Origin: an uncultured Chloroflexia bacterium
GTDB lineage: Bacteria > Chloroflexota > Ktedonobacteria > Ktedonobacterales > JADMIN01
DNA: 32,000 nt
Reading direction: 5' to 3'
Assembly (NCBI GenBank): GCA_963718915.1
Contig: CAVRAI010000006.1
Coordinates: 120,001-152,000, forward strand
Shown here: positions 4,037 to 31,024 of the stretch, in pieces
How the letters are laid out: each line of letters starts with the position of its first letter
Numbering within the stretch: position 1 is the stretch's first letter
Made by a program: the position numbers and the translations under genes
The notes under the pieces: generated by a model
Told to the model about the DNA's origin: nothing
The model's input: only the letters and a program-made list of their open reading frames with translations
Database searches by the model: none

Positions 4037-4600
4037 TGCCCACCCGGCTGGACCTGCCAGGATATTGGCGGCCCCGGGCAGGCGGGGAGCCAGAGCTACG
4101 CGGGCGACAGCCTCTGGACCGTCTCGGGCGGTGGGACGGATATCGTGGGGACGAGCGACCAGTTCCACTTCGTCTCCCAGAGCCAGGCGGGCGACGCGAC
4201 GCTCTCGGCCCATGTCGCCTCACAGACCACCACCGACCCCTGGGCCAAAGCTGGGGTGATGGTGCGCGCCACCGGCACGGGGGCCAACGCGCCGTTCTAT
4301 GCGGTGCTGGTCTCGCCGGGCAACGGCATCGCGGTGCAGTATCGTGATACGGCGGGCGGCACGGCAGTGCACCCGGCGAACGTCAACGGCGTGGCGGCGC
4401 CCGCTTATGTCGCCGTCGCGCGCGTGGGGACCACCTATAGCGGCTATACCTCCACGGATGGGACGAACTGGACCTTGATCCCTGGCTCCAGCCATACCAG
4501 CAGCGGCCTCAGCGGCAGCGTACAGATGGGGCTGGCGGTGACGGCGCACAACAACGCGACCGTCTCGACGGCGACCTTCGACACCGTCTCGCTCATGACC
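4037..4600 (+). other. ConA-like/LamG-type (DUF1349-like) beta-sandwich domain, copy 1, inserted in the Rhs shell
   Basis: CPPGWTCQDIGGPGQAGSQSYAGDSLWTVSGGGTDIVGTSDQFHFVSQSQAGDATLSAHVASQTTTDPWAKAGVMVRATGTGANAPFYAVLVSPGNGIAVQYRD...GTTYSGYTSTDGTNWT...VQMGLAVTAHNN...FDTVS. The pattern W..QDIG...G.G.DI.GTSDQF.F....GD....A.V..Q...WAKAGVM.R...Y......G...QYR matches what I recall from ConA-like lectin/glucanase-fold accessory domains. The family name is from memory, not from a search. Confidence 0.6.
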
Positions 4601-4615
4601 GGGGGCGCGAATGTC

Positions 4616-5165
4616 TGCCCGACCGGCTGGACCTGTCAGGATATCAACAGCCCAACGCCCGCTGGGAGCCAGAACTACCTCAACAACGGCGTCTGGATCA
4701 TCTCGGGCGCAGGCGCCAACATCTGGGGGACGAGCGACCAGTTCCACTACGTCTCGCAGGCCGTCGCCAGCGATGTCGCCTTCAGCGCCCATGTCGACTT
4801 GCAGACCAACACGAACTCGGTTGCCGAGGCGGGAGTGATGGTGCGCGGCAGTAGCGCCAATAACGCCCCCTACTACTTCGCGTTCGCCACCCCCAGCGGC
4901 GTCGTCTACGTCCAGTACCGTGACGCGGCGGGTAACACCGCCGCCACCCAGACGACCACTGCTGGGAGCGCACCGATCTACCTCAAGGTCGGACGGGTGG
5001 GAACCACCTACACTGCCTACACCTCCAGCGATGGCGTCACCTGGACGGCGATCTCCGGCTCGGCGCGCACCATGAGCAACCTGAGCGGCAGCGTGCAGAT
5101 CGGCCTGGCCGTCACCTCGCACAACAACGGGACACTCTCGCCCGACACCTTCGACCAGATTAGCG
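4616..5165 (+). other. ConA-like/LamG-type beta-sandwich domain, copy 2 (tandem with copy 1)
   Basis: CPTGWTCQDINSPTPAGSQNYLNNGVWIISGAGANIWGTSDQFHYVSQAVASDVAFSAHVDLQTNTNSVAEAGVMVRGSSANNAPYYFAFATPSGVVYVQYRD...GTTYTAYTSSDGVTWTAISGSARTMSNLSGSVQIGLAVTSHNNGTLSPDTFDQIS. It is colinear with copy 1 over its whole length. Confidence 0.6.
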
Positions 5166-5720
5166 AGACGCCGGGTAGTTCCCCAGTCTTCGCGCCGCCC
5201 GCTGCCGTCACCGTCACGCCCATCGCCGCCGCCGATGGCACGACCAGCTACCCCATTCAGACGGCCTACAACGACGCCAGCCAGCCGACGACGCTCACCT
5301 ACTCGGACAACGAGGTGGCCAGCTACGGCTACGACGGCGCCTCTGGCTGGCTTTCGAGCCTGAGCACGACCCCGGCAGGCGGCAGCGCGACCACGCTCCT
5401 GGGCAGCATTGGCTACAGCGGAGTCGGTGGGGCAGCGGGTCACGCCACCAGCGCGAGTGTCGGCGGCGGCACGTACACATTTAGCTCTAGCTATGACGCC
5501 GATGTCCGCCTGAGCAGCCTGAGCGTCTCGAACACCAGCACCAGCGCTGTGCTCTTCCAGAGCCAACGGGGCTATGACGCCGCCAGCAACGTGACCTCGG
5601 TCGCCACGACGCTCTCCGCCGGAACGGACAACCAGGCGTTCTGCTATGACGACCAGAACCGGCTGGTCTGGGCCGGATCGACCGGCACGCCGTCGTGCGG
5701 GAGCTCACTGACCGCCAGGG

Positions 5721-6222
5721 AGCCTGAGCAGCGCCAACTACACGCAAGCCTTTACCTACGACAATCTGGATCGGCTCACCAGTGGGCCGCTGGGCAGCTA
5801 TACCTATGGCGATAGCGCCCATCTGCATGCCGTCACCAGCATTGGCAGCGGTGCCGACCTATACCGCCAAATATGACGCGGTCGGCGACATGACCTGCCG
5901 TGCGCCTGATAACACGACGACCTGCGCGGGTACGCCAACAGGGGCACAACTGGGCTACGACAACGAGGGGCGACTCGCCACCTGGCAGAATGCGCCAAGC
6001 AGTCCGACCACCACTGATAGCTTCCTCTACGATGGGGCGGGCAACGGGTCGAGCAGTCGGTAACCATCAACGGCTCGATGACGACCACGACCACCTATGT
6101 GGCGGGCGGGCTGGAGGAGATCAGCGCCAATGGCGTAAGCACGACCACGACCACGTATTTCACGGGCGCAGATGGCTTGCCCACCGCCGAACGGGTGAGC
6201 ACGGGGAGCACGCCGGCCCATT
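5721..6222 (+). pseudogene. Main rhs gene, three short frame segments between closely spaced frameshifts
   Basis: Frame 3 reads SLSSANYTQAFTYDNLDRLTSGPLGSYTYGDSAHLHAVTSIGSG. Frame 1 reads PTYTAKYDAVGDMTCRAPDNTTTCAGTPTGAQLGYDNEGRLATWQNAPSSPTTTDSFLYDGAGN. Frame 3 then reads VEQSVTINGSMTTTTTYVAGGLEEISANGVSTTTTTYFTGADGLPTAERVSTGST. All three are colinear with the uninterrupted cassettes O4 and O5. The apparent 1-nt indels are near 5852 (ggtGccgac vs ggtccgac), 6045 (aacggg vs aaccggg) and 6212-6216. Confidence 0.7.
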
Positions 6223-8339: not shown

Positions 8340-8936
8340 ATGGGACAGGCACACTATGAGACGCAACCTGGGGAGCAACACCTGCTAGCCAACGGCGCAC
8401 TCTCCCAGATCAGCAAAGCGTCACAAGCGTCACAAGTGTCACCCGACTTGTTCCACCTAGCTCTCAGGCTCATTGCCGAATTGGGCGCCTGCATACAGAT
8501 GATCGCCAGTGACCTCCTTCACGCGCACGAAGAAGCGCACGAGGCCCAAGACCTGGACCTAGCCGCGCACCGCTGGGCGCAGCACCTGCGGGCGGTAATC
8601 GCGTTGGTCGAAGAACTCGGGAACGGTAGCGCGAGGGAGAGGGAGAGAAGCGTCGGAATACCAACACTGCGCCCGCTAGTCGCTCCGTACGCTACTGCCA
8701 CGACGCAGACAGAACCAGGATCTTCCCGCCTGGCACGTCCGATGCGTCGCGCCCGTCCAACATCAGCATTGGCATCTCCAGTCCGGTTGACACCCCGCGA
8801 ACGCGAGGTGCTACGCCTGGCTGAACGCGGCTATCCGCCGCGCATAATTGCCAAGCGGCTCTATCTCTCGGTGGAGACCGTCTATACCCACCGGCGCAAC
8901 ATCCGCCGCAAACAACAGCAGCATGCCCAGCCGTGA
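8340..8936 (+). CDS. LuxR/GerE-family helix-turn-helix transcriptional regulator
   Basis: The C-terminal LTPREREVLRLAERGYPPRIIAKRLYLSVETVYTHRRNIRRK matches the LuxR/GerE-type HTH pattern (T.RE.EVL.L...G....IA..L..S..TV..H..NI..K). I do not recognise the N-terminal 140 aa. Confidence 0.7.
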   Translation: MGQAHYETQPGEQHLLANGALSQISKASQASQVSPDLFHLALRLIAELGACIQMIASDLLHAHEEAHEAQDLDLAAHRWAQHLRAVIALVEELGNGSARERERSVGIPTLRPLVAPYATATTQTEPGSSRLARPMRRARPTSALASPVRLTPREREVLRLAERGYPPRIIAKRLYLSVETVYTHRRNIRRKQQQHAQP

Positions 8937-8943
8937 AGTGGGG

Positions 8944-11382
8944 CGGGCGCGGATATCGTCGGGACGAGCGACCAGTTCCACTTCGTCTCAGAGAGCCAAT
9001 CGGGCGATGGCTCGCTCTCGGCGCGGGTGAATACCCAGACCAACACCGACCCCTGGGCGAAGGCGGGGATCATGGCGCGCGCCAGTAACGCGGCGAACGC
9101 GCCGTTCTACGCGGTGTTCGTCACGCCGGGCAACGGCATCGCGGTGCAGGTTCGCGATAGCACGGGGGCGACGGCGGTGAAGTCGGCGACGGCCAGTGGC
9201 GTCGTACCACTCTATCTCCAGCTCACACGGAGCGGGACGACCTACAGCGCCTCCACCTCCAGCGACGGGGTGCATTGGACCGCGATCCCCGGCTCGGCGC
9301 GGACGATGAGCAATCTGAGCGGGACGGTGCAGCTGGGGTTGGCCGTCACCGCGCATAACACCGGCGCGCTCTCCGCGGCTCTCTTCGACCAGCTCAGCGC
9401 AGCTACCCCAGCCCCCGGCAGCATCACTGTCACCCCGATGGCCGCTGCCGATGGCACGAGCAGCTATCCGATCCAGACCGCCTACAACGACGCCAGCCAG
9501 CCGACCAGCCTCACCTACTCGGACAACGAGGTGGCGACCTACGGCTATGACGGCGCCTCCGGCTGGCTTGCGAGTCTCAGCACCACCCCCGCAGGTGGTA
9601 GCGCCACCACGCTACTCGGCAGCATCGGCTACAGCGGCGCTGGGAGGAGCGGCAGGGCATGCCACCAGCGCGAATGTGGATGGTGGTACGTATACCTTCG
9701 GAGCTAGCTACGACGCCGATACCCGCCTCAGCAGCCTGAGCGTCTCAAATACCAGCACAAGCGCCGTCTTGTTCCAGAGCCAACGCGGCTATGACGCCGC
9801 CAGTAACGTCACGGCGGTGGCCACCACACTCTCAGCAGGCACCGACAACCAGGCGTTCTGTTACGACGACCAGAACCGCTTAGTTTGGGCGGGGTCCACT
9901 GGCACGCCTTCCTGTGGCGCGTCGCTCACCGCAGGCAGCCTGTCCAGTGCCAATTACACCCAGTCGTTCAGCTACGACACGCTGGACCGCCTCACCAATG
10001 GCCCGCTAGGCAGCTACACCTACGGCGATAGCGCGCATCTCCATGGCGTGACCAGCATTGGCAGCGGGCCAACCTACACCGCCATGTACGACGCGGTGGG
10101 CGATATGACCTGCCGAGCCCCCGACAACACGACAACGTGTGCAAGCGCCCCGACGGGCGCACAGTTGGGCTACGACAACGAGGGACGGCTGGCGACGTGG
10201 CAGAACGCGCCGAGTAGCCCGACGACGACTGACAGCTTCCTCTACGATGGGGCGGGCAACCGGGTCGAGCAGCAGGTGACCATCAATGGCTCGATCACGA
10301 CTACGACGATTTATGTAGCCGATGGGCATGAAGAAATCACCAGTGGTGGAGCAGGGACCACTCTCACCAAGTATTTCGCAGTAGGAGATGGCTTACCAAC
10401 GGCCGAACGCGTCGGTACCAACGGCCCAGTAAGCCTCCTCACCAGCGACGGGCTGGGTAGCCTCTCTGAAGCCCTTGATAGCAGCGGCAATGTCACCTTC
10501 CAGCAACTTTATGCGCCGTATGGTGTCGGGCGCTATAGCAGTGGCAGCTCACCGACGGCACTGGGTTATACTGGGCAACGCGAAGACGGAACAACCGGAT
10601 TAGATTACTACCATGCCCGGTATTATGATCCAGTGGGAGGGCAATTCGGGAGCGCAGATACCGCCGATGATGGGCTGAACCGGTATGGCTACGTGCACGG
10701 GAACCCAACGACAGCGACCGATCCAACGGGGCATCGATGTTTTACAGGCGATGGTAGCGTTTGTGGCGGACCTGGGAGTTCACCCTTGCCTCCAATTCCG
10801 ACGACGTGTCATAGTGATGCATCATGTGGGTGCTATACACTGTGTAGCAGTAAGACTATCTGTAACCTTGGCCTACCCACCCAAGGTTGTAACAACGGTC
10901 CGACGCTTGGTGCTGGTGGGGTAAGAAGCGGAGGACACGAGCAGACCAACGCGATATCTTTTAGCGATAAGAGGTATCTTTTCCGAGGACCCGAGCAACA
11001 TGGAGATGACGGACAATGGCACGTCAATGTGCAGATTTTTTCCGCGGAAGGCCAGGAACTGCACAACTACCATATCTTTTATGGGGGTGATCATGCAGGT
11101 AACAACTGCAGCGAGGTCGCTTGGGTACAAGGATTCGATACAGGTGCCTATGCTAGCGAAGATATTGAAGGAGAGAACCGATTCTTCTACGGTCCGCAAG
11201 GGCCGGAGCCTTATCCTGCAACGTGCGCCTTCGGAGCAGAAATAGCCGCGTGGGATGCCACAGGTAAGATCGCGCAGGAAAACGACATTCCCGGAATTAT
11301 GCCGGATTTGGCGAGGTTTCTCATAACATCTTTCGCAGAATTATGTGCCTTGGGGGATGAATATAAGGGGAACAAAGGGTGA
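8944..11382 (+). pseudogene. Orphan rhs cassette O2: one ConA-like domain, YD repeats, RHS core and CT2 (10735-11382); no start, one frameshift near 9643-9647
   Basis: Homology to the main gene begins abruptly at about 8944 (GADIVGTSDQFHFVSESQSGDGSLSARVNTQTNTDPWAKAG..., compare 4140). The frame changes after GSIGYSGAG (9027..9707 ORF to 9451..11382 ORF). The core ends YGYVHGNPTTATDPTGH (DPTGH at 10720-10734). CT2 is RCFTGDGSVCGGPGSSPLPP...HNYHIFYGGDHAGNNCSEVAW...EYKGNKG. Confidence 0.8.
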
Positions 11383-11566
11383 TTCGCAGGCTTTAGCCTC
11401 ATCTGGCGAATGCTACCTGCGGCAGACCAGAAGTGCGTTAATAGATATCAGCTTTCCCTTGCAAGCCTGTTCTACGTCTTGATGTATGATGGGGTGAAGT
11501 AGCCTGTTGCGGCACATGCAATGGCGGAGCGCCTTTATCTGTTAACGGGCAAGGAGATGTGCTGAT

Positions 11567-12238
11567 ATGCGTCAGATAGCCTTTAATGCCGAGCCACAGT
11601 ATGGTCGAGTGGCACAAGAATATGGGCGTTTTCGCCTGCGACGGGTGTTCATGCCTCTGGAAGGTGGTGGCGCGGAGCCTACAACAACCTATGCGATCAC
11701 CCTTGTGCGCGACACAGGCACAGAGACAGAAGCAGAGGTCGCCTGGATCCAGCGCTTCTTGGCGACGTTACCTGGCATCATCCGTTGCATCGAACAATGG
11801 CTTGAGAGTGAGCCAGCGCGCCTTCGGCACAGAGAGGAGGAATCGGCGGCGCGTGAGAAGCGCATCGCCTCCGGCGAACCGCCCATCGAGTGGACCGACG
11901 AACGCTTGCAAGCCCATGCGGCGTTGATGGAACAACAGCACCAACAATGGCAGCGTGAACACGAGGAACGGCTCGAACAGATCTATCAGGAGCGCTATGG
12001 CGATTGGCGGCCACCAGTACCGACGCGGGAACAGGTGGAGCAGTACTTCCAGCAGATGGCTCCAGGAGAGGAGCCCTGCCCGGATGTCACTGTTGTGCGA
12101 ACATTGGCGATGAGTCTGGAGGAGCGGCATCAGCGTTACCACGCGGTTGAGGTCGCGTTGCGCGAGCTGAAGGCGGCTAATCCTGATGTTGTCCCGCATC
12201 TTGACAGCCCGCTCGGCGGTACAAATTCGACGCCCTGA
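11567..12238 (+). CDS. Hypothetical soluble, acidic, Glu/Gln/Arg-rich protein; candidate immunity protein for CT2
   Basis: 223 codons, ATG start with AAGGAG about 10 nt upstream. No hydrophobic segments. The central region looks helical (HREEESAAREKRIASGEPPIEWTDERLQAHAALMEQQHQQWQREHEERLEQIYQERYG). It is the first same-strand ORF after CT2. I recognise no family. Confidence 0.5.
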   Translation: MRQIAFNAEPQYGRVAQEYGRFRLRRVFMPLEGGGAEPTTTYAITLVRDTGTETEAEVAWIQRFLATLPGIIRCIEQWLESEPARLRHREEESAAREKRIASGEPPIEWTDERLQAHAALMEQQHQQWQREHEERLEQIYQERYGDWRPPVPTREQVEQYFQQMAPGEEPCPDVTVVRTLAMSLEERHQRYHAVEVALRELKAANPDVVPHLDSPLGGTNSTP

Positions 12239-12336
12239 TCGTCTTGTACCTCTAAGTCGTCTGCGGTGCATTTCGCTACGACTTCGGCAGGTCAACTACC
12301 TTTAGAATTGCGCCTGTGGGCGTAATTTTCGGCTCC

Positions 12337-13632
12337 CCAGCCTGAGCACGACACCGGCGGGGGGTAGCGCCACCACCCTACTGGGCAGCATCGGCTACAG
12401 CGCGGCAGGCGGAGTCGTCGGCCACGCCACCAGCGCCAGCGTCGGCGGTGGGACGTATACCTTCGGCGCCAGCTACGACGCCGATGTCCGGCTGTCGAGT
12501 TTGAGTGTCGCGAACACCAGCACCAGCGCCGTGCTCTTCCAGAGCCAGCGGGGGTATGACGCGGCCAGCAACGTCACGGCGGTCGCCACGACGCTCTCGG
12601 CCGGGACCGACAACCAGGCGTTCTGTTACGATGAGCAGAACCGGCTCGTCTGGGCAGGATCCACGGGCACGCCAAGCTGTGGCGCGTCGCTCACGGCAGG
12701 CAGCCTCAGCAGCGCCAACTACACGCAAACCTTCACCTACGACAAGCTGGACCGGCTCACCAGCGGGCCGCTGGGCAGCTACACCTATGGCGACAGCGCC
12801 CATCTGCACGCAGTGACCAGCATCGGCAGCGGGCCAACCTACACCGCGAAGTATGATGCGGTCGGCGACATGACCTGCCGCGCGCCGGACAACACGACGA
12901 CCTGCGCAAGCACTCCAACCGGTGCGCAGTTGGGCTACGACAACGAGGGGCGGCTCGCCACCTGGCAGAATGCGCCAAGCAGCCCGACCACGACCGATAG
13001 CTTCCTCTACGATGGAGCAGGCAGCGCGTCGAGCAGTCGGTGACCATCAATGGCTCGATGACGACCACCACGACGTATGTGGCAGGCGGATTGGAAGAGA
13101 TCACTGCCAATGGGGCAGGGACAACGCTCATCAAATATTTCTACCGGCGCTAATGGCCTGCCCACCGCTGAGCGGGTCGGTCCGACAGGTATAACCGGCC
13201 CGCTGTAGCTATCTTGCCACGGATGGGCAAGGCACGGTCTCGGAATCGCTCGATAGCGCCGGGAACGTGACAAGTAGCCAACTCTATACACCGTATGGCA
13301 ACGCACGCTATAGCAGTGGCAGCTCACCTACGAGCATGGGCTATACTGGGCAGCAGGCGGATAGTAGCACAGGGCTAAACTATTACCCGCTCGGTATTAC
13401 GATCCAGTGGCGGGGCAGTTTGTCTCTGCCGATACGGTGGCCGATGGCCTCAACCGCTACGGTTACGTGGGCGGCAATCCCACAACGGCGATAGACCCAA
13501 GTGGGCATCGGATGGAGGCTCTTTTCGATGACTACGAGTGTCACGACTGCGACTTTACCCTTAACAACGTTACTGTCTTCTACCATGGATGCGCCAACCC
13601 AGATCTGGGGTGCTCATATGCTGACGCAACTA
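12337..13632 (+). pseudogene. Orphan rhs cassette O3, 5' part: YD repeats, RHS core and the first 41 codons of CT3; several frameshifts, then cut by an IS insertion
   Basis: Homology starts at SLSTTPAGGSATTLLGSIGYSAAGG (about 12337). Apparent 1-nt indels lie near 13022-13026, 13140, 13206 (ctgTagctat vs ctgagctat) and 13387-13390. DPSGH is at 13494-13508. CT3 then starts RMEALFDDYECHDCDFTLNNVTVFYHGCANPDLGCSYADAT and is interrupted at TA 13631-13632. Confidence 0.8.
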
Positions 13633-14834
13633 GTACTCAGTCCAGTTTGATTTGAGGGTTAGGATAGAGCGCATGCAGCTTGGTACGAGCATCATCGGGG
13701 GTGAATTGCCAGCGGATGCGGGCGTGAGTTGCGTTGCGCTCGGCCTCCAGGGCGGTGACGCGCTGAACCAGCGTGTCGTTATCGGGGACTGGACGCGCGA
13801 GGCAGCCGCGCTCGATGACGCTGATCTCGATCTCGGCCATATTGAGCCAACTGCCATGTTTTGGCGTATAGTGCACCTCCAAGCGGCTGGCGATAGCGCG
13901 CGCCTGCGCAGGCGGGAACGCCGCATAGAGCGCGGCCAGGGTATGGGTGTTGAGGTTATCCTGCACGAGAGCGATCCGCTCGGCCAGAGGGAAGGCTTCC
14001 TCGACCAGCCACCGCAAGCAGCGGGCATAGTGCAGCGCGGTACGCCGCGCGGTGGACGCGTACGTGACGCCAGCCCGCATGCGGAGCGACCAGCACAAAG
14101 AGGTTGGCCGTTCCCTGCCGAATATATTCGTAGTGCCGGCGCTGCACGGACGGGAGCGGGCGGCAGTCCATCCGCGGCTGCCCGTGCAAGACGACGGGCT
14201 TCTCATCGAGGCAGACGAGGGGGCGCAGGGGATCGGGCGGAGCGGCATAGACGTGGGCGTAAAGCGCGAGCACATCCTCCATCGCCGCGACAAAGGCGGC
14301 GCTCACGGTGGGAATACACCAGGCTTTGTGCTGCCAGGGCTTCAGCGCGTTTTTTGAGCAAGGCGCGGATGGTTTAGGGCGAGATGCGTTCCACAAAGCC
14401 GAGTTAGATCGCTTTGCCCGCCAAGAGGCGCAGCGTCCAGTGGTCGTGGCCAGCGGGCGCATCGCTGCACGCGACGGCAATGAGGTGGGCTTGCTGCTCG
14501 CCGGTCAAGGCGGCCCGGAGCCGCGTCTGCCGCCGGTCGGCGAGCACCGCCGCGACACCCTCTGCGGCAAAGCGTTGGCGCACGCGCCAGACCGTATTCT
14601 GGCTGACATCGAGCGCCTGGCTAATCGCGGCGGCGCTCCAGCCGTCGGCCAATTTCAAGAGCACATGGGCGCGCCGCTGGATCCGCGCAGCGGTATGTCC
14701 GCGCTGGATGACGGTCTGGGCCTGGGCGCGTTCAGCGGCGGACAACGTCAGGGGGTGGGTAGAGGTGGGCATACGAGGCTCCTTTCTGGTGCTGCATTCT
14801 ACCACCTTCTCCCAAATCAATGTGGACTAAGTAC
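13633..14834 (-). mobile_element. IS630-family (Tc1/mariner superfamily) insertion sequence, copy A
   Basis: Terminal inverted repeats: GTACTCAGTCCAGTTTGATTTG (13633-13654) against the reverse complement of 14813-14834, GTACTTAGTCCACATTGATTTG (19 of 22 match). It is flanked by TA at 13631-13632 and 14835-14836. It encodes an HTH plus DDE transposase on the minus strand. Confidence 0.85.
13637..14772 (-). pseudogene. IS630-family transposase, copy A (inactivated)
   Basis: The N-terminal HTH region (MPTSTHPLTLSAAERAQAQTVIQRGHTAARIQRRAHVLLKLADGWSAAAISQALDVSQNTVWRVRQRF) has AAAGGAG upstream of ATG 14772. DDE-type motifs are present: CLDEKPV, LVQDNLNTH, HGSWLNMAEIEISV. Two in-frame TAA stops (plus-strand tta at 14404-14406 and 14383-14385, where copy B has ttc) and a 1-nt insertion (ggtGgacgcg, about 14052) break the frame. 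Confidence 0.8.
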
Positions 14835-14836
14835 TA

Positions 14837-16040
14837 GTACTCAGTCCAGTTTGATTTGAGGGTTAGGATAGAGCGCATGCAGCTTGGTACGAGCATCATC
14901 GGGGGTGAATTGCCAGCGGATGCGGGCGTGAGTTGCGTTGCGCTCGGCCTCCAGGGCGGTGACGCGCTGAACCAGCGTGTCGTTATCGGGGACTGGACGC
15001 GCGAGGCAGCCGCGCTCGATGACGCTGATCTCGATCTCGGCCATATTGAGCCAACTGCCATGTTTTGGCGTATAGTGCACCTCCAAGCGGCTGGCGATAG
15101 CGCGCGCCTGCGCAGGCGGGAACGCCGCATAGAGCGCGGCCAGGGTATGGGTGTTGAGGTTATCCTGCACGAGCGCGATGCGCTGGGCCAGAGGGAAGGC
15201 TTCCTTGACCAGCCACCGCAAGCAGCGGGCATAGTCCAGCGCGGTACGCCGCGCGGTGACGCGTACGTGACGCCAGCCCGCATGCGGAGCGACCAGCACA
15301 AAGAGGTTGGCCGGTCCCTGCCGAATATATTCGTAGTCCGGCGCTCCACGCGGCCGGGAGCGGGCGGCAGTCCCATCCGCGGCTGCCCGTGCAAGACGAC
15401 GGGCTTCTCATCGAGGCAGACGAGGGGGCGCAGGGGATCGGGCGGAGCGGCATAGACGTGGGCGTAAAGCGCGAGCACATCCTCCATCGCCGCGACAAAG
15501 GCGGCGCTCACGGTGGGAATACACCAGGCTTTGTGCTGCCAGGGCTTCAGCGCGTTTTTTTGAGCAAGGCGCGGATGGTTTCGGGCGAGATGCGTTCCAC
15601 AAAGCCGAGTTCGATCGCTTTGCCCGCCAAGAGGCGCAGCGTCCAGTGGTCGTGGCCAGCGGGCGCATCGCTGCACGCGACGGCAATGAGGTGGGCTTGC
15701 TGCTCGCCGGTCAAGGCGGCCCGGAGCCGCGTCTGCCGCCGGTCGGCGAGCACCGCCGCGACACCCTCTGCGGCAAAGCGTTGGCGCACGCGCCAGACCG
15801 TATTCTGGCTGACATCGAGCGCCTGGCTAATCGCGGCGGCGCTCCAGCCGTCGGCCAATTTCAAGAGCACATGGGCGCGCCGCTGGATCCGCGCAGCGGT
15901 ATGTCCGCGCTGGATGACGGTCTGGGCCTGGGCGCGTTCAGCGGCGGACAACGTCAGGGGGTGGGTAGAGGTGGGCATACGAGGCTCCTTTCTGGTGCTG
16001 CATTCTACCACCTTCTCCCAAATCAATGTGGACTAAGTAC
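14837..16040 (-). mobile_element. IS630-family insertion sequence, copy B, directly abutting copy A through a single shared TA
   Basis: Same inverted repeats as copy A (14837-14858 and 16019-16040), flanked by TA 14835-14836 and TA 16041-16042. It is nearly identical to copy A apart from scattered substitutions and small indels. Confidence 0.85.
14841..15978 (-). pseudogene. IS630-family transposase, copy B (two-frame organisation at an A7 run, plus further indels in the catalytic region)
   Basis: The HTH ORF ends ...PETIRALLKKTR* and the DDE frame continues KNALKPWQHKAWCIPTVSAAF... from the A7 run (plus-strand T7 at 15555-15561), which is reachable by a -1 shift. The frame is lost again after ...VVLHGQPRM and is regained at LVAPHAGWRHVRVTARRTALDYARCLRWLVKEAFPLAQRIALVQDNLNTH...WLNMAEIE. 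Confidence 0.75.
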
Positions 16041-23677: not shown

Positions 23678-23750
23678 TTGACAGGCATCGATGGACAGGC
23701 ATACTATGGCGCTTGGGTCCGAAGGTTCTGTTGTTCCATTGGACAGGCAT
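23678..23750 (+). promoter_or_regulatory. Candidate sigma70-type promoter overlapped by three copies of the direct repeat T(T/G)GACAGGCAT, upstream of the 1601-codon gene
   Basis: TTGACA at 23678-23683, then 18 nt, then TACTAT at 23702-23707. The 11-mer occurs at 23678-23688 (TTGACAGGCAT), 23692-23702 and 23740-23750 (TGGACAGGCAT). Sequence pattern only. Confidence 0.3.
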
Positions 23751-23834: not shown

Positions 23835-26800
23835 ATGTCGCAACATAACGGGCCAAAGGATAGCGGCACGCCGACGGATCGTGTCGATGGAATCGCTCGC
23901 TTAGGCCAGACTGCAGCGGTGACATCCTCTTCCACCAGAGACGGGACGGTTGATGTAGCACAACGACGCAGCAGTCTGGCGAGCGGCGCAGTCATACGAC
24001 TTGGCGGCCGTATGACCAAGTTACTTGCCAGTGTTCTTACGTTCGCACTGGCATCGCGGTCCCTAGGAATCGAGCGTTTTGGCGACTTCGTTATCATATT
24101 CGCTTATATTCAACTCTTTAACGCACTCGCTAACTTTGGCGTGGACAGCATCCTGATCCGCGACCTGGCGCAACCTGAACTCGATCGAGGGGCTCACCGA
24201 ACACTTGTTCACGCGTCATTTACTAGCAAATTGTTGCTTGCCGTCGGAGTTAGCGCACTTGGTGTCTCGGTAGCTGTGGCGCTGAACTTTTCCGGGCAAC
24301 TACTTACATCTATTGTCCTCTTCTCACCCTTCATTTTGGTAACAGCATTTGGCACGAATGGTGTGTTCGGCGATGTACTACAGGCGCGTGGAGACAACAC
24401 CTCTATCGCTGTGGCTAGCGCCATTTCGGCCATTGTGGTTGTCGTCGGCACAGCCGGGGCTAGTCTTCTACATGCAAGCGTCGATGTATTCCTCCTGGTT
24501 TACACCCTTTCTAACTTGGTCGACGCGATCATCTGTATCCTGACTTCCCGGAAATTCATCCCCTTGGGCATGAGCTGGAGTGGCCCAGCGATTCGTTACC
24601 TGCTTGCGGAATCCTTCCCGCTTGCCTTCGGCTCGGCGTTTGTGCTGGTATATGGGCGCATCGACACTATCATGCTCGAGAAACTGACCGATCCCCAGCA
24701 GGTCGCGCTCTATGGCGTTGCGTATAAGTTTTTCGATGTCCTCTCCACCATCTCGGCGACGATCATGATCGTGGTGTTCCCTTCCCTGGCGCGTGCGTTT
24801 GCTCGCGACAAGGAGGGTGTACGGCGTTTATATTCACAGGTGTTCATCCTCATGGCTGCGTTAGCGATCCCGATGACCGTCGGTGTGGTAGTTTTCCGTT
24901 CGCAACTCCTCTCCTTGGTGGTCGGAGAACAGTACCTTGCAGCGGGAACAGCAATGCCGGGACTCATGCTCGCGATTGCGCTGATCTTTCCCAGTACCGT
25001 TGCGTCATACATGTTGATCGTAATCCGCAAGCAGCGCTGGAATTTTCCGATGGCAGTGGTCGCGTCAATTCTCAACATCGGCCTCAATCTTCTCCTCATC
25101 CCACGGTTTGGCTTCGTGGCTGCGGCCTGGGTGACGGCTGCGACGGAGGCATTCGTCATCATCTTCAATGTCGCCGTCGTCGCATTCACAGGGCACATGA
25201 TCCCATCGCTACGCAAGATGCTCGGCCTGATTGGAGCTTGCCTACCGCTAGGTCTTGCATTCCTGCCACACCTTCCCTCCTATGTCGGAGGAATCGCAGG
25301 TCTATTGCTCTTTGGGGGCCTTCTGTTCGTGCTTGGCGTTGTCCAACCGGCACAAGTGCGTGCGTTGCTCTCGCGAACGCCTGCGCCAGCAAGCGCCGAA
25401 GAGGAGGACCTCGAACGCGAGTACAGTGGGGTACTGCCGGCGCTGCAATACGTCGCTATGGCAGATCAACCCACTATGCCCCTTGCTGCCGTCCGACCTG
25501 GTGTTGCACGCGACCAATCATGGCAGACGAGCGCGCGCTTGAAGACAGTGCGGCCAGAGAACGGCAGCCAACAGCCTCGGCAAACCACACGCGGGAAACG
25601 ATCGGTCCTGATCGCTGCGATGGTCTCCCTGGTGGCAATCTCAGCCGCGTGCATCATCTTACTTCCTTTCGGCGTTGAGGTCGTTGCGCTACTCGTGTTT
25701 GCGGTAATGCTTGCCTCTGTCGCAATTCGCCCGCAGTGGGGACTCTATATTTTCGTGCTTGCGCTCCCGCTGCACAATCTGCTGATGGCGTTGCTCTTCG
25801 CATCGACAGGGGATGCCAACTTTGTGAAACTCGCGCAGCCATGGAAAGAGGTTGTCCTGGGGATCGCGCTGCTACGTGCTGGACTGCCCGCTGTGCTCGA
25901 ATGGTGGCGCACGCGACGGGTGCGCCTGACTGCGCTCGACATCCTGGTATTGTTGTTCTGTGTGGTGTGTGCGCTGAGCGTGGTGACGCCAAGCCATATT
26001 GTGCCGCTGACCGGCAAACTGCTAGGCTTCCGCCAGTTGGTGGCGCCGTTCGCGGTCTATTTTCTGGGCCGGCTGGCTCCTCCGACGCGTCGTGAACTGC
26101 AGTGGCTGGTTGGTGCTCTGGCGCTGATCGCCCTGGTATTCGCGTTGGTAGCGGTTGGCGAGCGCACCGTGTGGGGTGATGGGCTTTTTGTGGCGCTCAA
26201 CTACGGTTCCTACAATGCCACCTTTTTCAATTTCGAGTCGTTCTTGCCGTACAACATGGGAGCTACCTTTTTCACGGGAACTCCAAACTGGCTGCCGCGT
26301 GCTGGGTCATTGGCGGTCAACCCACTCGATCTCGCGTCTTTGCTGGTGATCGCCCTCCCTATCGTTCTAGCGGCAATGCCAGCCTTCAAGGAACACAATG
26401 CCAGGGTGTGGCGTCTTCTGATGGGCCTCACGGCGGTGATGAGTGGGGCGGCCCTGGTTCTCGCGTTCGGCCGCATGAGCCTGTTGCTGCTCCCGGTCGA
26501 GCTGCTACTACTCGTGGTACTCCTGGGCATCCGCAGCCAGTGGCGCGGCGTAGTGCTTGTCGGCCTGGGCGTTGGCATTGGCATCTCGCTATTCTTGCAG
26601 ACATCCGCGTACGTACTGGCCGCCCAGGATCCAAGTGACCGTGTGGCGTGGTCGAACCAGGGCATGCTTGCTTCTGGCGTATATACCTGGCTGGATATTC
26701 TTGCCCCCATCCTCACTATCTGCGGTGTTGCTGCCATTGTCGTGGCACTTATCACGGGGATATCTGCGATGATCCGTCGGCGGCGCGCTTCCCTCGCACG

Positions 26801-28640
26801 GGCGACGTTGGGCGGACTGGTGGGTGTCGTGCTCATAGCCGCCTGTCTGTTTGTTCCACCGCTCGCGCTTGCGAACTCCACAGGCATGTTCGCTCCGCTG
26901 ATATACAACACGCCCATCGCGAAGCTGACGGGCATACCACCAGCGTCTTGGAACCTTACCGATACCTCTGGAGGCGGCGAGCATTCCACTCCAGGGGACA
27001 ACACTCTAGCGAGCGCTATTAGCAGTGATAATACTTCCACACAGGGGCACTTCGAATCCTATAAACGGTTGCCAGGCGCGATCCTCCATCATCCGCTGGG
27101 CTACGGCGTCGGAAGCGCTGGAGCTGTCGGCTCGCGCTATGATACGGGCCTCAATGCGGAGAGCGCTTACCTGCCAGTCGGCGTGGAGCTTGGTTTGCCG
27201 GGACTGCTGCTCTACCTGGGAATATTCCTGGCATCGCTGTTCGCCATATGGAATGCGATTCGTTCGCGACTTGATCTGCTTCACCGAGCGGTGTTCGTGG
27301 GAGTGCTTGCGGCGTGGGTGTTTGTGCTGGTCGATGGTGTTGTTGCCGAGATAACGCTGAACTTCTTCGTTCTGTATGTCATGCTCTGGCTCACAGGATC
27401 CGCGGTGACTTTGGTACGCCAGAGCAGGGTTGTGCCGGACGGAATCCATGATACGTTTCAGGCCGTACGTCCCCTTCGTATCGCGATGGATGTGCAGTGT
27501 TTGCGCAGTGCGAGCACGGGCGTTCGGGTCTATGTGGATGAGCTTCTGGCGCGATTCGGTCAGCAAGATGTTCCACACGTGGTGGCGCCGATCTCAGGCC
27601 CGAAGGGTCTGCCCCCCACCAACACGGCGTTTCGTGCTATCAACCAGGGTCTGAATCTGCTCTGGGTGCATGTCCTTCTGCCAATCAGGCTTGCCCTGGG
27701 CAATTACGATGTGCTTTTCAGCCCTGAGTATCTGACGCCGATTTGGGTGCCAGTGGCCCGCGTCGTCACTTACCACGATTCTACCTTCCTCCGACGCCCT
27801 CAGGACTACAACCGTGTCTGGCACTTGATGTACCGCCTCATCACCATCCCAGCGACACGCCACGCTGATGCCATCGTGATGCCCTCACACTTCACAGCCA
27901 CAGAAGCCTCGCAGCTAGCTCATTTCGATCCTGGGCGCATCTACGTGACGCCAATGGGTCTCCCAGAATCGGGCACGTTGCGTGTGAATACATTGCGTGT
28001 GGATACACGGGCCGATCAGATCGTGTCGCGCTTCGGTGTGGCTTCAGGCACGTATCTTCTCCACGTAGGCGTGCTTGAGCACCGCAAGAATCTTGAGACC
28101 CTGGTGCGCGGTTTCGCGCTCTGGCGCCAACAGGGTGGGCCACAGCAGTTCAAGTTGGTGCTTGTTGGACACTCGCCAGTCCAGCCGACGCTCGACGACA
28201 CGCCGAATATCAGGCGCGTAATTGCGGAACTCGGCCTGGAGCAACTCGTGGTTCTCACCGGCAGGCTGACGCTGGAGGAGCGCGACGCTTTCTATGCACG
28301 GGCAGCGGCCTATGTTCTGCCCTCCAAGACTGAGGGGTTTGGGTTCCCTGTGCTGGAGGCCTTCGCGGCCAAGATTCCGCTCGTCTGCTCATTGATGGGA
28401 GCGCTACCCGAGGTTGCCGGAGACGCGGCGCTGTTCTTTGAACCCTCTTCTCCCCAGGAACTGGCGGATCACTTGAAATTACTCGCAAACGATCCCCATC
28501 TCCGTGGCGAACTGGTGCGCAAGGGTTCAGAGCGGCTCGCGAATTTCACCTGGGATCACACAGCCCAACGTACCTATGACGCGTTCGAGGCTGCGGCTGT
28601 TCGTGCCTATGCGCCGTCGAGCGCGCGTAGAACTGAGTAG
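23835..28640 (+). CDS. Fusion protein: Wzx-type polysaccharide flippase, O-antigen ligase/Wzy-like polytopic domain and GT4 (family 1 fold) glycosyltransferase
   Basis: One uninterrupted 1601-codon ORF with GAGAGG 8 nt before the ATG. Residues about 45-520 resemble Polysacc_synt/Wzx proteins (LASVLTFALASRSLGIERFGDFV..., ESFPLAFGSAFVLVYGRIDTIMLEKLTDPQQVALYGVAYKFFD). Residues about 590-1190 are polytopic and include an O-antigen-ligase-like segment (HHPLGYGVGSAGAVGSRYDTGLNAESAYLPVGVELGLPGLLLYLGIF). Residues about 1210-1601 are GT4-like (RIAMDVQCLRSASTGVRVYV..., LLHVGVLEHRKNLETLV, LPSKTEGFGFPVLEAFAAKIPLVCS). Confidence 0.8.
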   Translation: MSQHNGPKDSGTPTDRVDGIARLGQTAAVTSSSTRDGTVDVAQRRSSLASGAVIRLGGRMTKLLASVLTFALASRSLGIERFGDFVIIFAYIQLFNALANFGVDSILIRDLAQPELDRGAHRTLVHASFTSKLLLAVGVSALGVSVAVALNFSGQLLTSIVLFSPFILVTAFGTNGVFGDVLQARGDNTSIAVASAISAIVVVVGTAGASLLHASVDVFLLVYTLSNLVDAIICILTSRKFIPLGMSWSGPAIRYLLAESFPLAFGSAFVLVYGRIDTIMLEKLTDPQQVALYGVAYKFFDVLSTISATIMIVVFPSLARAFARDKEGVRRLYSQVFILMAALAIPMTVGVVVFRSQLLSLVVGEQYLAAGTAMPGLMLAIALIFPSTVASYMLIVIRKQRWNFPMAVVASILNIGLNLLLIPRFGFVAAAWVTAATEAFVIIFNVAVVAFTGHMIPSLRKMLGLIGACLPLGLAFLPHLPSYVGGIAGLLLFGGLLFVLGVVQPAQVRALLSRTPAPASAEEEDLEREYSGVLPALQYVAMADQPTMPLAAVRPGVARDQSWQTSARLKTVRPENGSQQPRQTTRGKRSVLIAAMVSLVAISAACIILLPFGVEVVALLVFAVMLASVAIRPQWGLYIFVLALPLHNLLMALLFASTGDANFVKLAQPWKEVVLGIALLRAGLPAVLEWWRTRRVRLTALDILVLLFCVVCALSVVTPSHIVPLTGKLLGFRQLVAPFAVYFLGRLAPPTRRELQWLVGALALIALVFALVAVGERTVWGDGLFVALNYGSYNATFFNFESFLPYNMGATFFTGTPNWLPRAGSLAVNPLDLASLLVIALPIVLAAMPAFKEHNARVWRLLMGLTAVMSGAALVLAFGRMSLLLLPVELLLLVVLLGIRSQWRGVVLVGLGVGIGISLFLQTSAYVLAAQDPSDRVAWSNQGMLASGVYTWLDILAPILTICGVAAIVVALITGISAMIRRRRASLARATLGGLVGVVLIAACLFVPPLALANSTGMFAPLIYNTPIAKLTGIPPASWNLTDTSGGGEHSTPGDNTLASAISSDNTSTQGHFESYKRLPGAILHHPLGYGVGSAGAVGSRYDTGLNAESAYLPVGVELGLPGLLLYLGIFLASLFAIWNAIRSRLDLLHRAVFVGVLAAWVFVLVDGVVAEITLNFFVLYVMLWLTGSAVTLVRQSRVVPDGIHDTFQAVRPLRIAMDVQCLRSASTGVRVYVDELLARFGQQDVPHVVAPISGPKGLPPTNTAFRAINQGLNLLWVHVLLPIRLALGNYDVLFSPEYLTPIWVPVARVVTYHDSTFLRRPQDYNRVWHLMYRLITIPATRHADAIVMPSHFTATEASQLAHFDPGRIYVTPMGLPESGTLRVNTLRVDTRADQIVSRFGVASGTYLLHVGVLEHRKNLETLVRGFALWRQQGGPQQFKLVLVGHSPVQPTLDDTPNIRRVIAELGLEQLVVLTGRLTLEERDAFYARAAAYVLPSKTEGFGFPVLEAFAAKIPLVCSLMGALPEVAGDAALFFEPSSPQELADHLKLLANDPHLRGELVRKGSERLANFTWDHTAQRTYDAFEAAAVRAYAPSSARRTE

Positions 28641-28739: not shown

Positions 28740-29732
28740 CTACACGTTACGCTCTCGCCAGGGAGCGGGTCCTCGGAGCATGATCCCTATGACGTGCCAG
28801 AGCAACCTTGCACGCTGCTGTGACTTTTCTCGGAGATGCTGCTTCGGCGCGAGCAAGCCCACGAGCGCAAGTGCGCACATCATGGCGAAATAGGCGCATA
28901 GCACCGCGACGGTAAGAGTTGCTGCCTGCCACACCCCCAAATACCTATGAGCGAAATAGCGCGCGCTGTTGATGCTCGCGCCTAGTGAGCGCGGGGTGAG
29001 GCCCTTCTGCCGACTGGAACCTCCCTCGAAGTGGATGATCGTGGAGGTGGGCACATAGCGGACGACATAGCCCGCTCTTCGAATGCGATAACAGAGATCG
29101 GTGTCCTCAAAGTAGAGGAAGATATGTGGATCGAAGCCACCAACTTGCGCCAGCACATGGCTCGGAATCAGCAGTTGGCATCCAGAGAGCGTAGCAACAT
29201 CCCGTGGCGCGCTATGATCCCAGTCCCGAAGCTGCTGACGGCGCTCGCTGCGGCTAGTCAAGCCGAGATATGCGAGTATATAGCTAGCAAGTAGCACTGG
29301 CAGCGTGTACTCGTCGCGGCACGAATACTGGATCGTGTGGTCAAGATTGAGGACTCTTCCTCCAATGGCGCCGCAACGGGGCCCTAACATATCGGCGGCT
29401 GCCACGAGGCCGTCGAGAGGTTCGAGCACCTGCGTGTCGGTATTGAGGAAAAGGATATACCGTCCGGTACAGTATGGGAGCGCCTGGTTATTCCCTGCGC
29501 CGAAGCCACGATTCTCTCGGTGGTATACGCACCGTACCAGCGGGATGGCGTTTTCGAGCGAACGGAGCAACTCCTGGCTACCATCAGTGGAGGCGTTATC
29601 CGCAATGACAATCTCGTACGAGCAGCGTGTGCCTGAGCGCATGATGGAGTCAAGACACTGCTCCACGAGAGGCGCACCGTTCCAGTTGAGCAGTACAATC
29701 GAGATGTCTACGACACGGCCCCGGTCAGTCAT
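28740..29732 (-). CDS. Family 2 glycosyltransferase (rhamnosyltransferase-like)
   Basis: 330 codons with GGGGAGG upstream of the ATG. ISIVLLNWNGAPLVEQCLDSI...YEIVIADNASTDGSQELL, FGAGNNQA, ILFLNTDTQV (DxD-type motif), and a C-terminal hydrophobic segment. Confidence 0.85.
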   Translation of the reverse strand: MTDRGRVVDISIVLLNWNGAPLVEQCLDSIMRSGTRCSYEIVIADNASTDGSQELLRSLENAIPLVRCVYHRENRGFGAGNNQALPYCTGRYILFLNTDTQVLEPLDGLVAAADMLGPRCGAIGGRVLNLDHTIQYSCRDEYTLPVLLASYILAYLGLTSRSERRQQLRDWDHSAPRDVATLSGCQLLIPSHVLAQVGGFDPHIFLYFEDTDLCYRIRRAGYVVRYVPTSTIIHFEGGSSRQKGLTPRSLGASINSARYFAHRYLGVWQAATLTVAVLCAYFAMMCALALVGLLAPKQHLREKSQQRARLLWHVIGIMLRGPAPWRERNV

Positions 29733-29830: not shown

Positions 29831-31024
29831 CTACACGTCCGCGGGGACACCCTTATAGACCTCCCACAGAAGTTCATTGAACGCAGGGACGATGCGGTCG
29901 AGGGTAAAACATTGCAGCGCGCGTTGCTGACCGGCGGCGCCCATAGCGTCGCGTCGCTGCGCGCTCTTAACGAACCTGCCAAGCGCACTGGTCAACGCCT
30001 CGACATCATTGTTAGGCACGACGTAGCCGGTTTCATTGTGGGTGACCAGTTCGCGATTACCACCTACGTCGGTTGCGACCACCGGTTTGCGCGCAAACAT
30101 CGCCTGAATGATAGTTAGGCTGGCGCCTTCGCCATATCGCGACGGGGCCGCGAGAATATCCATGGCCGTCATGAGATCAGGCGCGTCGCGCCGCTCACCC
30201 AGCAAATGGAAGCGCGTCGGGTCAGGCGATTCAGCGATCAGTCGATGCAGCGTATCGATCGCGTCGGTCTGGCCCGGCACTGGCCCGCCCGCGATGAAAC
30301 AGTGCAATCGTGGGAAGTAGGGCATCAGCCGTGAGACAGCCTGTACGCACAAGTCTGGCGCTTTCATATGCGAGATACGCGCTACCATTCCGACGACGAT
30401 GTCTTCAGGGGTAAGCCCCAACTCGGCACGGACACGTTCGCGGCCACTCGCATTCATCCAGGTTCCCGGCTCTTTGCCGTTATAGATTACAACACCCTTC
30501 GCGCGAGCCTCGGGTGTCACCAGAATGTTCTCCAGCGCCGCCTGGCTCACACCGACTACGCGCTGTGAGTGCGACGGCACAAAGCGACGCATCAGGGTGA
30601 CAAGCGGCTTTGGGCCTTCGAGTGTCTCATGAATGTGCCAGACATGCGGGCGCTTCGTCCTCGTAGCGGCCAGGGCTCCGGTCCAGGGAGCAAGGGTATT
30701 CGTGTGGACGAGATCCACCTGCTCGCGCCGTATGATCTCCGAGACGGCACTTACAGAGGTGCGGACGCGGCCAAGGAAGCCTGGAAATGCTGACGGTGAA
30801 AGATACTTGCGCCGTGCCACGGCAATCGGGAATGAATGAACCAGAATGTTCGACTTTTCCAGTTCAGCGCTCAACAAGCCGCTGTACTCCATGTCGTTGG
30901 CCAACAGGACGAGCGGATTGAATCGGCTGCGATCCAGCCCACGAAGCAGGTACAGCAAAGAGATGTCGGCGCCATAGAGCTCATTACTGGGATGTAAGAA
31001 CAGCACCCGTACCGGTTCGCGCAT
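29831..31024 (-). CDS. Family 1 fold (GT4) glycosyltransferase
   Basis: 397 codons with AAGGAG upstream of the ATG. VRVLFLHPSNELYGADISLLYLLRGL..., HVWHIHE, FIAGGPVPGQ, PSRYGEGASLTIIQAMFARKPVVATDVGGNRELVTHNETGYVVP (the E..7..E-type region). Confidence 0.85.
   Translation of the reverse strand: MREPVRVLFLHPSNELYGADISLLYLLRGLDRSRFNPLVLLANDMEYSGLLSAELEKSNILVHSFPIAVARRKYLSPSAFPGFLGRVRTSVSAVSEIIRREQVDLVHTNTLAPWTGALAATRTKRPHVWHIHETLEGPKPLVTLMRRFVPSHSQRVVGVSQAALENILVTPEARAKGVVIYNGKEPGTWMNASGRERVRAELGLTPEDIVVGMVARISHMKAPDLCVQAVSRLMPYFPRLHCFIAGGPVPGQTDAIDTLHRLIAESPDPTRFHLLGERRDAPDLMTAMDILAAPSRYGEGASLTIIQAMFARKPVVATDVGGNRELVTHNETGYVVPNNDVEALTSALGRFVKSAQRRDAMGAAGQQRALQCFTLDRIVPAFNELLWEVYKGVPADV

Follow-up and report, generated by a model that had tools for sequence, protein, structure and literature searches.

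A conserved gene of Ktedonobacteria joins predicted flippase, Wzy_C-like and GT4 glycosyltransferase modules in one polypeptide

Can a lipid-linked-saccharide flippase, a polymerase- or ligase-like membrane enzyme and a glycosyltransferase be genuinely encoded as one polypeptide, and what would such a polypeptide do? The question is raised by a single gene in a 32,000-nt stretch of DNA (hereafter, the window), positions 120,001 to 152,000 of contig CAVRAI010000006.1 (assembly GCA_963718915.1) from an uncultured Ktedonobacterales bacterium. An earlier note, made from the letters of this DNA alone, had described the gene as a three-way fusion of Wzx-like, Wzy_C-like and GT4 modules. The fusion proved to be genuine and conserved: all three module assignments hold, and the architecture is uninterrupted. 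Judged by its sequence, the product is a predicted membrane protein of Ktedonobacteria-type Chloroflexota, of ~170 kDa and with ~30 transmembrane (TM) helices. It is composed of the following parts:

23835..28640, + strand: fusion gene, encoding a single protein of Wzx-like, Wzy_C-like and GT4 modules; 1601 codons, ATG start, uninterrupted
23835..24014, + strand: cytoplasmic N-terminal tail, residues 1-60; variable, except for a conserved R..SL...A.IRLGGR just before TM1
24015..25349, + strand: MOP/PST flippase module, residues 61-505; 14 predicted TM helices, N-in/C-in
25350..25595, + strand: linker 1, residues 506-587, cytoplasmic; predicted disordered, with a predicted local distance difference test score (pLDDT) of ~30; ratio of non-synonymous to synonymous substitution rates (dN/dS) 0.17
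25425..25490, + strand: conserved motif in linker 1, residues 531-552, VLPALxYVAxSDQPSxQLAA; 75% mean pairwise identity
25596..27419, + strand: Wzy_C/WaaL-like membrane module, residues 588-1195; 16 predicted TM helices
27420..27470, + strand: junction 2, residues 1196-1212, a short variable cytoplasmic tether ending in invariant RPLR
27471..28640, + strand: GT4 (GT-B) glycosyltransferase module, residues 1213-1601; EX7E motif E1500...E1508

The list of open reading frames (ORFs) agrees with the claim that the 1601-codon frame at 23835-28640 on the forward strand is continuous, without a stop codon or frameshift. A Shine-Dalgarno-like GAGAGG lies 8 nt 5' of the ATG at 23835. In the closest relative (locus L011, 95% identical), a stop codon is immediately followed by the same N-terminal tail in frame, which supports the start at this position; the gene caller of that record had taken an internal Met as the start. 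The search for homologues, which covered 5.8 billion proteins, revealed one full-length homologue with 95% identity and nine of 1577-1633 aa with 48-57% identity. They originated from ENA, NCBI, JGI and Logan assemblies, and the named ones are annotated as "glycosyltransferase [Ktedonobacterales bacterium]." Two more distant three-module proteins, P0021 (1524 aa) and P0177 (1552 aa), share 38-42% identity with the full-length homologues. The family aligns colinearly over its whole length, at a mean column identity of 71%. An exact look-up of the 1601-aa window protein in the assembly collection returned no identical entry, and among the species-representative genomes, scanned with two peptide patterns, the family was present in three Ktedonobacteria metagenome-assembled genomes (MAGs) alone. 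One full-length homologue (P0002) is labelled as belonging to the MAG of a Nitrososphaerota archaeon. Like P0003, it shares 57% identity with the window protein, and it groups by identity with Ktedonobacterales proteins; its contig was probably mis-binned.

A gene of this kind might also arise if an assembly or sequencing error, or the decay of a pseudogene, had merged three adjacent genes. The unusual length of the gene and its rearranged, repeat-rich neighbourhood are consistent with such an artefact, and nothing else is. Against it stand the junctions themselves, which are intact in more than 10 independent Ktedonobacteria assemblies whose homologues range from 38 to 95% identity. Comparison with L011 gave dN/dS values of 0.215 for the Wzx module, 0.168 for linker 1, 0.261 for the Wzy-like module and 0.243 for the GT4 module (0.257 overall), which indicates purifying selection on all three modules and on linker 1. 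The predicted topology, described below, is coherent as well. We regard an artefact as extremely improbable.

Profile searches bore out the assignments of all three modules, and fold comparison did so for both membrane modules. When the whole protein was scanned with Pfam, the N-terminal module matched Polysacc_synt (PF01943, residues 53-321, E 1.2e-21, 77.9 bits vs. a cut-off of 28.2) and Polysacc_synt_3 (PF13440, residues 75-369, 59.7 bits vs. 23). The AlphaFold2 (AF2) model of residues 1-612 showed 14 helices in the flippase module, at modest confidence (predicted template-modelling score, pTM, 0.57). Its comparison by Foldseek retrieved MurJ (7wax, E 1.7e-7, template-modelling score TMt 0.72) and WzxE (9g9p, TMt 0.81). 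The N-terminal module is thus assigned, from profile and model, to the PST/Wzx-type flippases of the MOP superfamily, and its translocation activity is predicted.

At the other end of the protein, the Pfam scan detected Glyco_transf_4 (PF13439, residues 1229-1376, 38.4 bits vs. 28.5) and Glycos_transf_1 (PF00534, residues 1407-1565, E 6e-25, 88.2 bits vs. 26.4). An EX7E motif in the C-terminal domain is a hallmark of CAZy family GT4, which comprises retaining glycosyltransferases of the GT-B fold. In the fusion, this motif is intact (E1500-GFGFPVL-E1508), and both Glu residues are invariant in 11 sequences. The closest solved relatives of the module are MshA, BshA and GlgA. The NCBIfam matches were all sub-threshold and comprised exopolysaccharide (EPS), mycothiol and teichuronic-acid GT4s and an EPS flippase. 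A role in defence, suggested by a match to PF20706 ("GT4 in conflict systems"), was set aside; the match was weaker than the generic GT4 matches.

In the middle module, Wzy_C (PF04932; the superfamily of WaaL ligases, Wzy polymerases and PglL-type O-OTases) matched residues 964-1128 with 31.3 bits in the scan of the whole protein, just below the cut-off of 31.7, and with 32.6 bits, above the cut-off, when the middle module was scanned alone. The same domain was matched in 10/10 members of the fusion family (best E 2.3e-10) and in 18/22 wider relatives of the middle module (best E 5e-19). The AF2 model of the module was of moderate quality (pLDDT 68, pTM 0.69). Its sole confident fold match in the PDB was WaaL (7tpg_B, probability 1.00, E 0.01, TMt 0.56), and all other matches had a probability of at most 0.21. 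No WaaL or Wzy was retrieved by PDB sequence searches with the single sequence, with the family profile or with a broad profile that included stand-alone relatives; it is thus the fold match and Pfam that tie the module to WaaL. Matches of the broad profile to diadenylate cyclase (E 0.003) and to a rhodopsin-like nascent chain were rejected as chance-level. The obtained profile and model data place the middle module in the Wzy_C superfamily as a putative WaaL-like member, for which polymerase and ligase are not separable by sequence.

Both membrane modules have an even number of predicted TM helices (14 + 16), which places the N-terminus, linker 1, junction 2 and the GT4 module in the cytoplasm. 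The distribution of Lys and Arg agrees with this arrangement. In the flippase module, they account for 28/190 loop residues inside vs. 3/59 outside, and in the middle module, with TM1 entering from the cytoplasm, for 14/62 inside vs. 8/211 outside; the same bias was found in all homologues. The earlier proposal that the GT4 domain should end up cytoplasmic thus agrees with the prediction, which also places the Wzy-type loops outside. Three segments of the middle module are relevant here:

26175..26321, + strand: conserved extracytoplasmic loop, residues 781-829, with family-invariant R822
26688..26852, + strand: two-helix hairpin TM12-13, residues 952-1006, confined to the clade of the fusion
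26853..27170, + strand: large extracytoplasmic loop, residues 1007-1112; a variable S/T/G/P-rich part (1007-1062) is followed by a conserved part

P0019-P0023 and the stand-alone relatives lack the hairpin, and profile positions 372-447 find no match in relatives; since two helices are added, the parity of the topology stays the same. In the broad family of the middle module, R822 is invariant and R880 is at least 90% conserved. The conserved part of loop 1007-1112 contains DN(T/S)STQGH (with H1072), HPxGxGxGSAG, R1101 and ES (with E1109); within the fusion family, H1072 never varies and R1101 is near-invariant. Loops 781-829 and 1007-1112 and residue R880 are predicted to face outward, like their counterparts in Wzy and WaaL. 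In Wzy, the large external loops PL3 and PL5 are described as carrying conserved Arg residues (PMC3854497). The variable half of the large loop (residues 1007-1062, 26853-27020) is rich in indels across the family. In comparison with the 95%-identical relative, it shows 10 non-synonymous and 1 synonymous changes (dN/dS ~3.9, from small numbers; ~0.2 elsewhere), and it may represent an exposed segment that is diversifying or glycosylated.

We take the canonical Wzy_C/WaaL motif to be "HN...E.G..G," with a catalytic His, located before the following TM helix. In the fusion family, E1109-S1110 apparently occupies the HN register: ESAYLPVGVELGLPG. This register was set by the Pfam consensus and by the Wzy_C match, which ends at residue 1128. 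The invariant H1072 sits 37 residues upstream of E1109. The stand-alone relatives of the middle module have GE[NS]xY at the motif position, and the ~1000 relatives form a large, mostly stand-alone Wzy_C subfamily with the pattern SxxGH ... GE[NS]xY ... G.ELG..G, apparently without the canonical HN. No curated model matched the middle module in an NCBIfam scan of the fusion protein. A 932-aa paralogue in locus L001 carries the canonical PHN (PHN...GIIG).

The connecting segments lie where the earlier note had placed them (about 25380-25600 and 27400-27460) to within ~30 nt: linker 1 at 25350-25595 and junction 2 at 27420-27470. The description of linker 1 as low-complexity needs to be amended: the linker is predicted to be disordered (pLDDT ~30), but its core motif at residues 531-552 is as conserved as the catalytic domains. 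Family-wide identity is 75% for this 22-residue motif, 70% for the Wzx module and 73% for the GT4 module. The motif is also kept in an orthologue from locus L005 in which the Wzx module is deleted. Junction 2 ends in RPLR[IV]AMD, the first strand of the GT4 fold. The earlier note had seen what looked like a former glycosyltransferase start at LRIAMDV; RPLRIAMD opens the GT4 module in every architecture variant found.

An exhaustive profile search with the middle module retrieved 1059 relatives at E <= 1e-3, and stand-alone proteins of 440-550 aa make up nearly the whole of the best 150. That a three-way fusion is unusual was confirmed: it occurs in 2 of the 150 best-scoring 50%-identity clusters of these relatives. 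Both split and fused forms exist, and the fused ones comprise the following:

Wzx-Wzy-like-GT4: P0004 (family representative), P0021
GT2-Wzy-like-GT4: P0019
Wzy-like-GT4: P0020, P0068, P0173 and the 932-aa protein of L001
Wzx-GT4: P0011/P0174, P0017
Wzx-YfhO: P0013-P0016

The Wzx-GT4 protein P0011/P0174 (1019 aa), found on two independent contigs, lacks the middle module entirely and shares 54% identity with the window protein in each of its two parts; its linker is A/P/G-rich and unrelated to linker 1 or junction 2. The L005 orthologue (9737-13123, from a Ktedonobacterales MAG) carries a clean in-frame deletion of ~470 residues that removed the Wzx module and left the N-terminal tail and linker 1 in place. 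Locus L001 contains a split analogue, in which a stand-alone Wzx of 592 aa (25% identical) is directly followed by the 932-aa protein with a weak Wzy_C module and GT4, in the same order as in the fusion. The two-module relatives share the GT4 start RPLR[IV]A[MV]D, and several occupy the same position in their cluster. The split set of L001 (17464-22146) lies beside a fusion gene, which gives two flippases and two Wzy_C-type modules in one cluster; one of the latter is possibly a polymerase and the other a ligase. A 692-aa protein upstream of the Wzx-GT4 variant in L009 was considered as a separate Wzy-like module and rejected; it showed no similarity, was weakly PMT_2-like and had no Pfam hit. 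Proteins P0013-P0016 (1331-1398 aa) join a Polysacc_synt flippase to a YfhO-type GT-C enzyme, and P0018 (1505 aa) combines GT2, GT4, GtrA and PF03706 (the flippase region of MprF type). The flippase-transferase fusion appears to be a recurrent design.

The reading that we favour, and consider fairly probable, is that the fusion makes, flips and then polymerises or ligates a lipid-linked glycan; it is drawn from the modules, their sidedness and the gene context. The tethered GT4, together with a partner GT4 and a partner GT2 encoded beside the fusion gene, would build a polyprenyl-diphosphate-linked oligosaccharide at the inner face of the membrane, and the tethered GT4 probably adds a late sugar. 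The MOP module would flip the lipid-linked unit across the membrane, where the Wzy_C-like module would pass the glycan from the lipid carrier on to an outer-face acceptor, by polymerisation or by ligation to a wall or lipid acceptor. Fusion would fix a 1:1:1 stoichiometry and proximity, and only units finished by the tethered GT4 would be flipped and used. The split analogue of L001, in the order of the fusion, counts in favour of this reading, as does a cluster with rml genes, DUF1972-GT4, Hexapep acetyltransferase and methyltransferases. Two characterised precedents treated below, WadA and the synthase-flippase fusions MprF/PplT, count in its favour too. A further step is tentative and rather doubtful: the glycosyltransferase that acts last in the cytoplasm, the flippase and the polymerase or ligase of the outer face may form one assembly with direct hand-off, with the linker-1 motif as a cytoplasmic coupling element.

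Several observations weigh against this proposal. Neither an initiating phosphoglycosyl transferase (PF02397/PF00953) nor a co-polymerase or chain-length regulator was listed in the window or in L001-L003, L005, L009 and L010; both may be encoded elsewhere in these fragmentary genomes. The middle module and ~1000 relatives apparently have Glu-Ser where His-Asn is canonical, and the chemistry of this subfamily, as far as its motif suggests, may differ from that of WaaL. The covalent three-way link is dispensable, because the Wzy-like module is missing from P0011/P0174 and the Wzx module from the L005 orthologue, both of which are natural variants. The donor specificity of the GT4 is not readable from sequence, since its nearest solved relatives are MshA, BshA and GlgA. 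In addition, the AF2 models are moderate (pTM 0.69 for the middle module and 0.57 for residues 1-612).

The main rival is an arrangement resembling Brucella WadA, in which the glycosyltransferase adds the acceptor sugar and the ligase domain attaches O-antigen there after flipping (PMC9938171). By analogy, the GT4 of the fusion would build or cap an acceptor (a glycolipid anchor or lipid-linked primer), the MOP module would flip this acceptor, and the Wzy_C-like module would ligate a separately made glycan onto the sugar installed by the GT4. The weaker NCBIfam matches of the GT4 include MGlcDAG synthase (E 1e-5), GlcN-PG synthase (E 1e-9) and IagA/BgsA (E 0.09), as such a role would predict; however, these glycolipid-anchor matches lie far under their cut-offs and are no better than those to EPS glycosyltransferases. 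The second Wzx and the second Wzy_C-like-GT4 protein of L001 are what one would expect if one set polymerises and the other ligates. On the other hand, both the module order and the glycosyltransferase family differ from those of WadA, and in L010 no glycan genes lie nearby other than the fusion and one GT4, with no separate donor pathway visible. We consider this arrangement improbable.

Less probable still is a fusion of convenience, in which the modules act independently and the fusion secures co-expression, stoichiometry and membrane tethering of the soluble GT4, without hand-off. The GT4 that starts at RPLR[IV]A[MV]D is indeed the constant part, found behind Wzx, Wzy-like, GT2 + Wzy-like or Wzx + Wzy-like modules; orthologous loci tolerate the loss of either membrane module, and linker 1 is predicted to be disordered. 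However, the motif in this linker is as conserved as the catalytic domains (dN/dS of linker 1 0.17), which suggests more than a passive tether, and the three-way form persists across lineages just 38-42% identical. In Pel biosynthesis, the GT4 PelF is paired with PelG, which is a PST-like membrane protein, and in a synthase of this kind the GT4 would polymerise processively in the cytoplasm, the MOP-type module would export the polymer and the Wzy_C-like module would be accessory. The Wzx-GT4 variant without the middle module, present on two independent contigs, fits this scheme. Nevertheless, the fusion protein had no PelF or PelG family match in Pfam or NCBIfam, and a weak PelF match occurred in the partner GT4 alone (36.5 bits vs. 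a cut-off of 100). The best structural matches of the N-terminal module are lipid-linked-saccharide flippases, and the middle module is strongly conserved; a Pel-like synthase is very unlikely.

The neighbourhood of the fusion gene, on which the favoured reading draws in part, includes the following features:

23678..23707, + strand: candidate sigma-70-like promoter, TTGACA-16/18-CATACT/TACTAT, with 10/12 positions matching; consensus match alone
28740..29732, - strand: partner GT2 glycosyltransferase, 330 aa (Pfam); 72% identity with the GT2 of L001, which lies two genes upstream of the fusion there
29831..31024, - strand: partner GT4 glycosyltransferase, 397 aa (Pfam); orthologue of the GT4 that directly precedes the fusion in all related loci

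The partner GT4 of the window is 58-71% identical to the GT4s of L001, L005, L009 and L010. It is always adjacent to the fusion gene, usually with the GT2; the trio of GT2, GT4 and fusion is conserved, but it is rearranged beside an rhs array in the window. In L001, L005 and L009, the gene lies between a GT4 of ~400 aa and a Hexapep acetyltransferase. The sister clusters contain rmlA/B/C/D-type (dTDP-rhamnose) genes, a DUF1972-GT4, further glycosyltransferases and methyltransferases; the DUF1972-GT4 presumably belongs to the family of the rhamnosyltransferase GacB. The fusion and partner GT4 of L010 stand alone among housekeeping genes.

The adjoining rhs DNA had been described as error-laden or decayed, a view that did not survive closer analysis: diverged orphan rhs C-terminal cassettes follow one another here in an ordered array. 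Within 1595-23422, a long RHS-repeat ORF (1595-5815) is followed by five diverged copies of the rhs core end with 60-88% identity. These copies lie at ~9.6, 12.4, 17.7, 20.0 and 22.9 kb, and each is followed by low-GC variable sequence, with the GC content alternating between 0.65 and 0.52. Arrays of orphan rhs C-terminal toxin/immunity cassettes show this pattern. Between the end of the last rhs copy and the fusion gene lie ~400 nt. Inside the array, 13629-14650 and 14833-15855 form a 1.2-kb tandem duplication (99-100% identity), which is either recent or a product of assembly collapse/expansion. An ORF at 8340-8936 (+ strand), located between rhs cassettes, encodes a LuxR/GerE-type helix-turn-helix (E 1e-10).

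How does the fusion compare with known systems? The Wzx/Wzy pathways for O-antigen, enterobacterial common antigen (ECA) and teichuronic acid (TuaB/TuaE/TuaC) use the same three families with the same predicted sidedness. In contrast to them, the fusion is one polypeptide, with no initiating transferase or co-polymerase seen nearby, and its Wzy_C module has 16 predicted TM helices instead of 12-14, with Glu-Ser apparently at the canonical His-Asn position. The host lineage of Chloroflexota presumably lacks lipopolysaccharide (LPS), so the acceptor must be other than LPS. The closest characterised precedents are two-module proteins, namely WadA (glycosyltransferase and O-antigen ligase) and MprF (synthase and flippase). 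WadA of Brucella is a membrane enzyme with a cytoplasmic glycosyltransferase and an outer-face Wzy_C O-antigen ligase site; its two modules are an N-terminal glycosyltransferase (residues 1-266) and a 12-TM ligase, without a flippase, and it acts on the lipid A-core (PMC9938171). Unlike WadA, the fusion has a C-terminal GT4 of a different family, a 16-TM membrane module and an added flippase, and is thus set apart by its architecture. In MprF/PplT fusions, a lipid synthase is joined to its flippase; PplT-GT-B fusions have been reported from Chloroflexi, and PplT-O-antigen-ligase fusions as rare cases (bioRxiv 10.1101/2022.03.11.483950). The fusion shares with them the design of making and flipping a product in one chain, whereas its flippase is MOP rather than PplT; PplT substrates are phospholipids, and those proteins have no third module. 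Our search of the literature for natural Wzx-Wzy or flippase-polymerase fusions found no report, and a search for Ktedonobacteria envelope glycans found nothing relevant.

The family is small and lineage-specific, its members are already deposited as "glycosyltransferase," and the function is predicted; we see it as a useful lead and not as a new principle. To our knowledge, a complex of Wzx, Wzy and a glycosyltransferase has long been suspected in repeat-unit pathways and never shown structurally. If the reading as one assembly with direct hand-off is correct, the fusion would be a natural "Rosetta stone" for the Wzx/Wzy pathway and a ready-made single-chain Wzx-Wzy-GT complex for structural work, and a single chain with fixed stoichiometry is suited to cryo-EM and to the study of substrate hand-off. 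If the Glu-for-His substitution is real, the Wzy_C subfamily that carries it (~1000 members) may use a variant catalytic mechanism. As far as we know, the envelope glycans of this monoderm-type phylum are essentially unstudied. The fusion extends to three modules, and to this phylum, the class of enzymes with active sites on both membrane faces that was introduced by WadA in 2023. That a natural three-way fusion has been conserved is an independent, evolutionary line of evidence for a benefit from bringing these activities close together.

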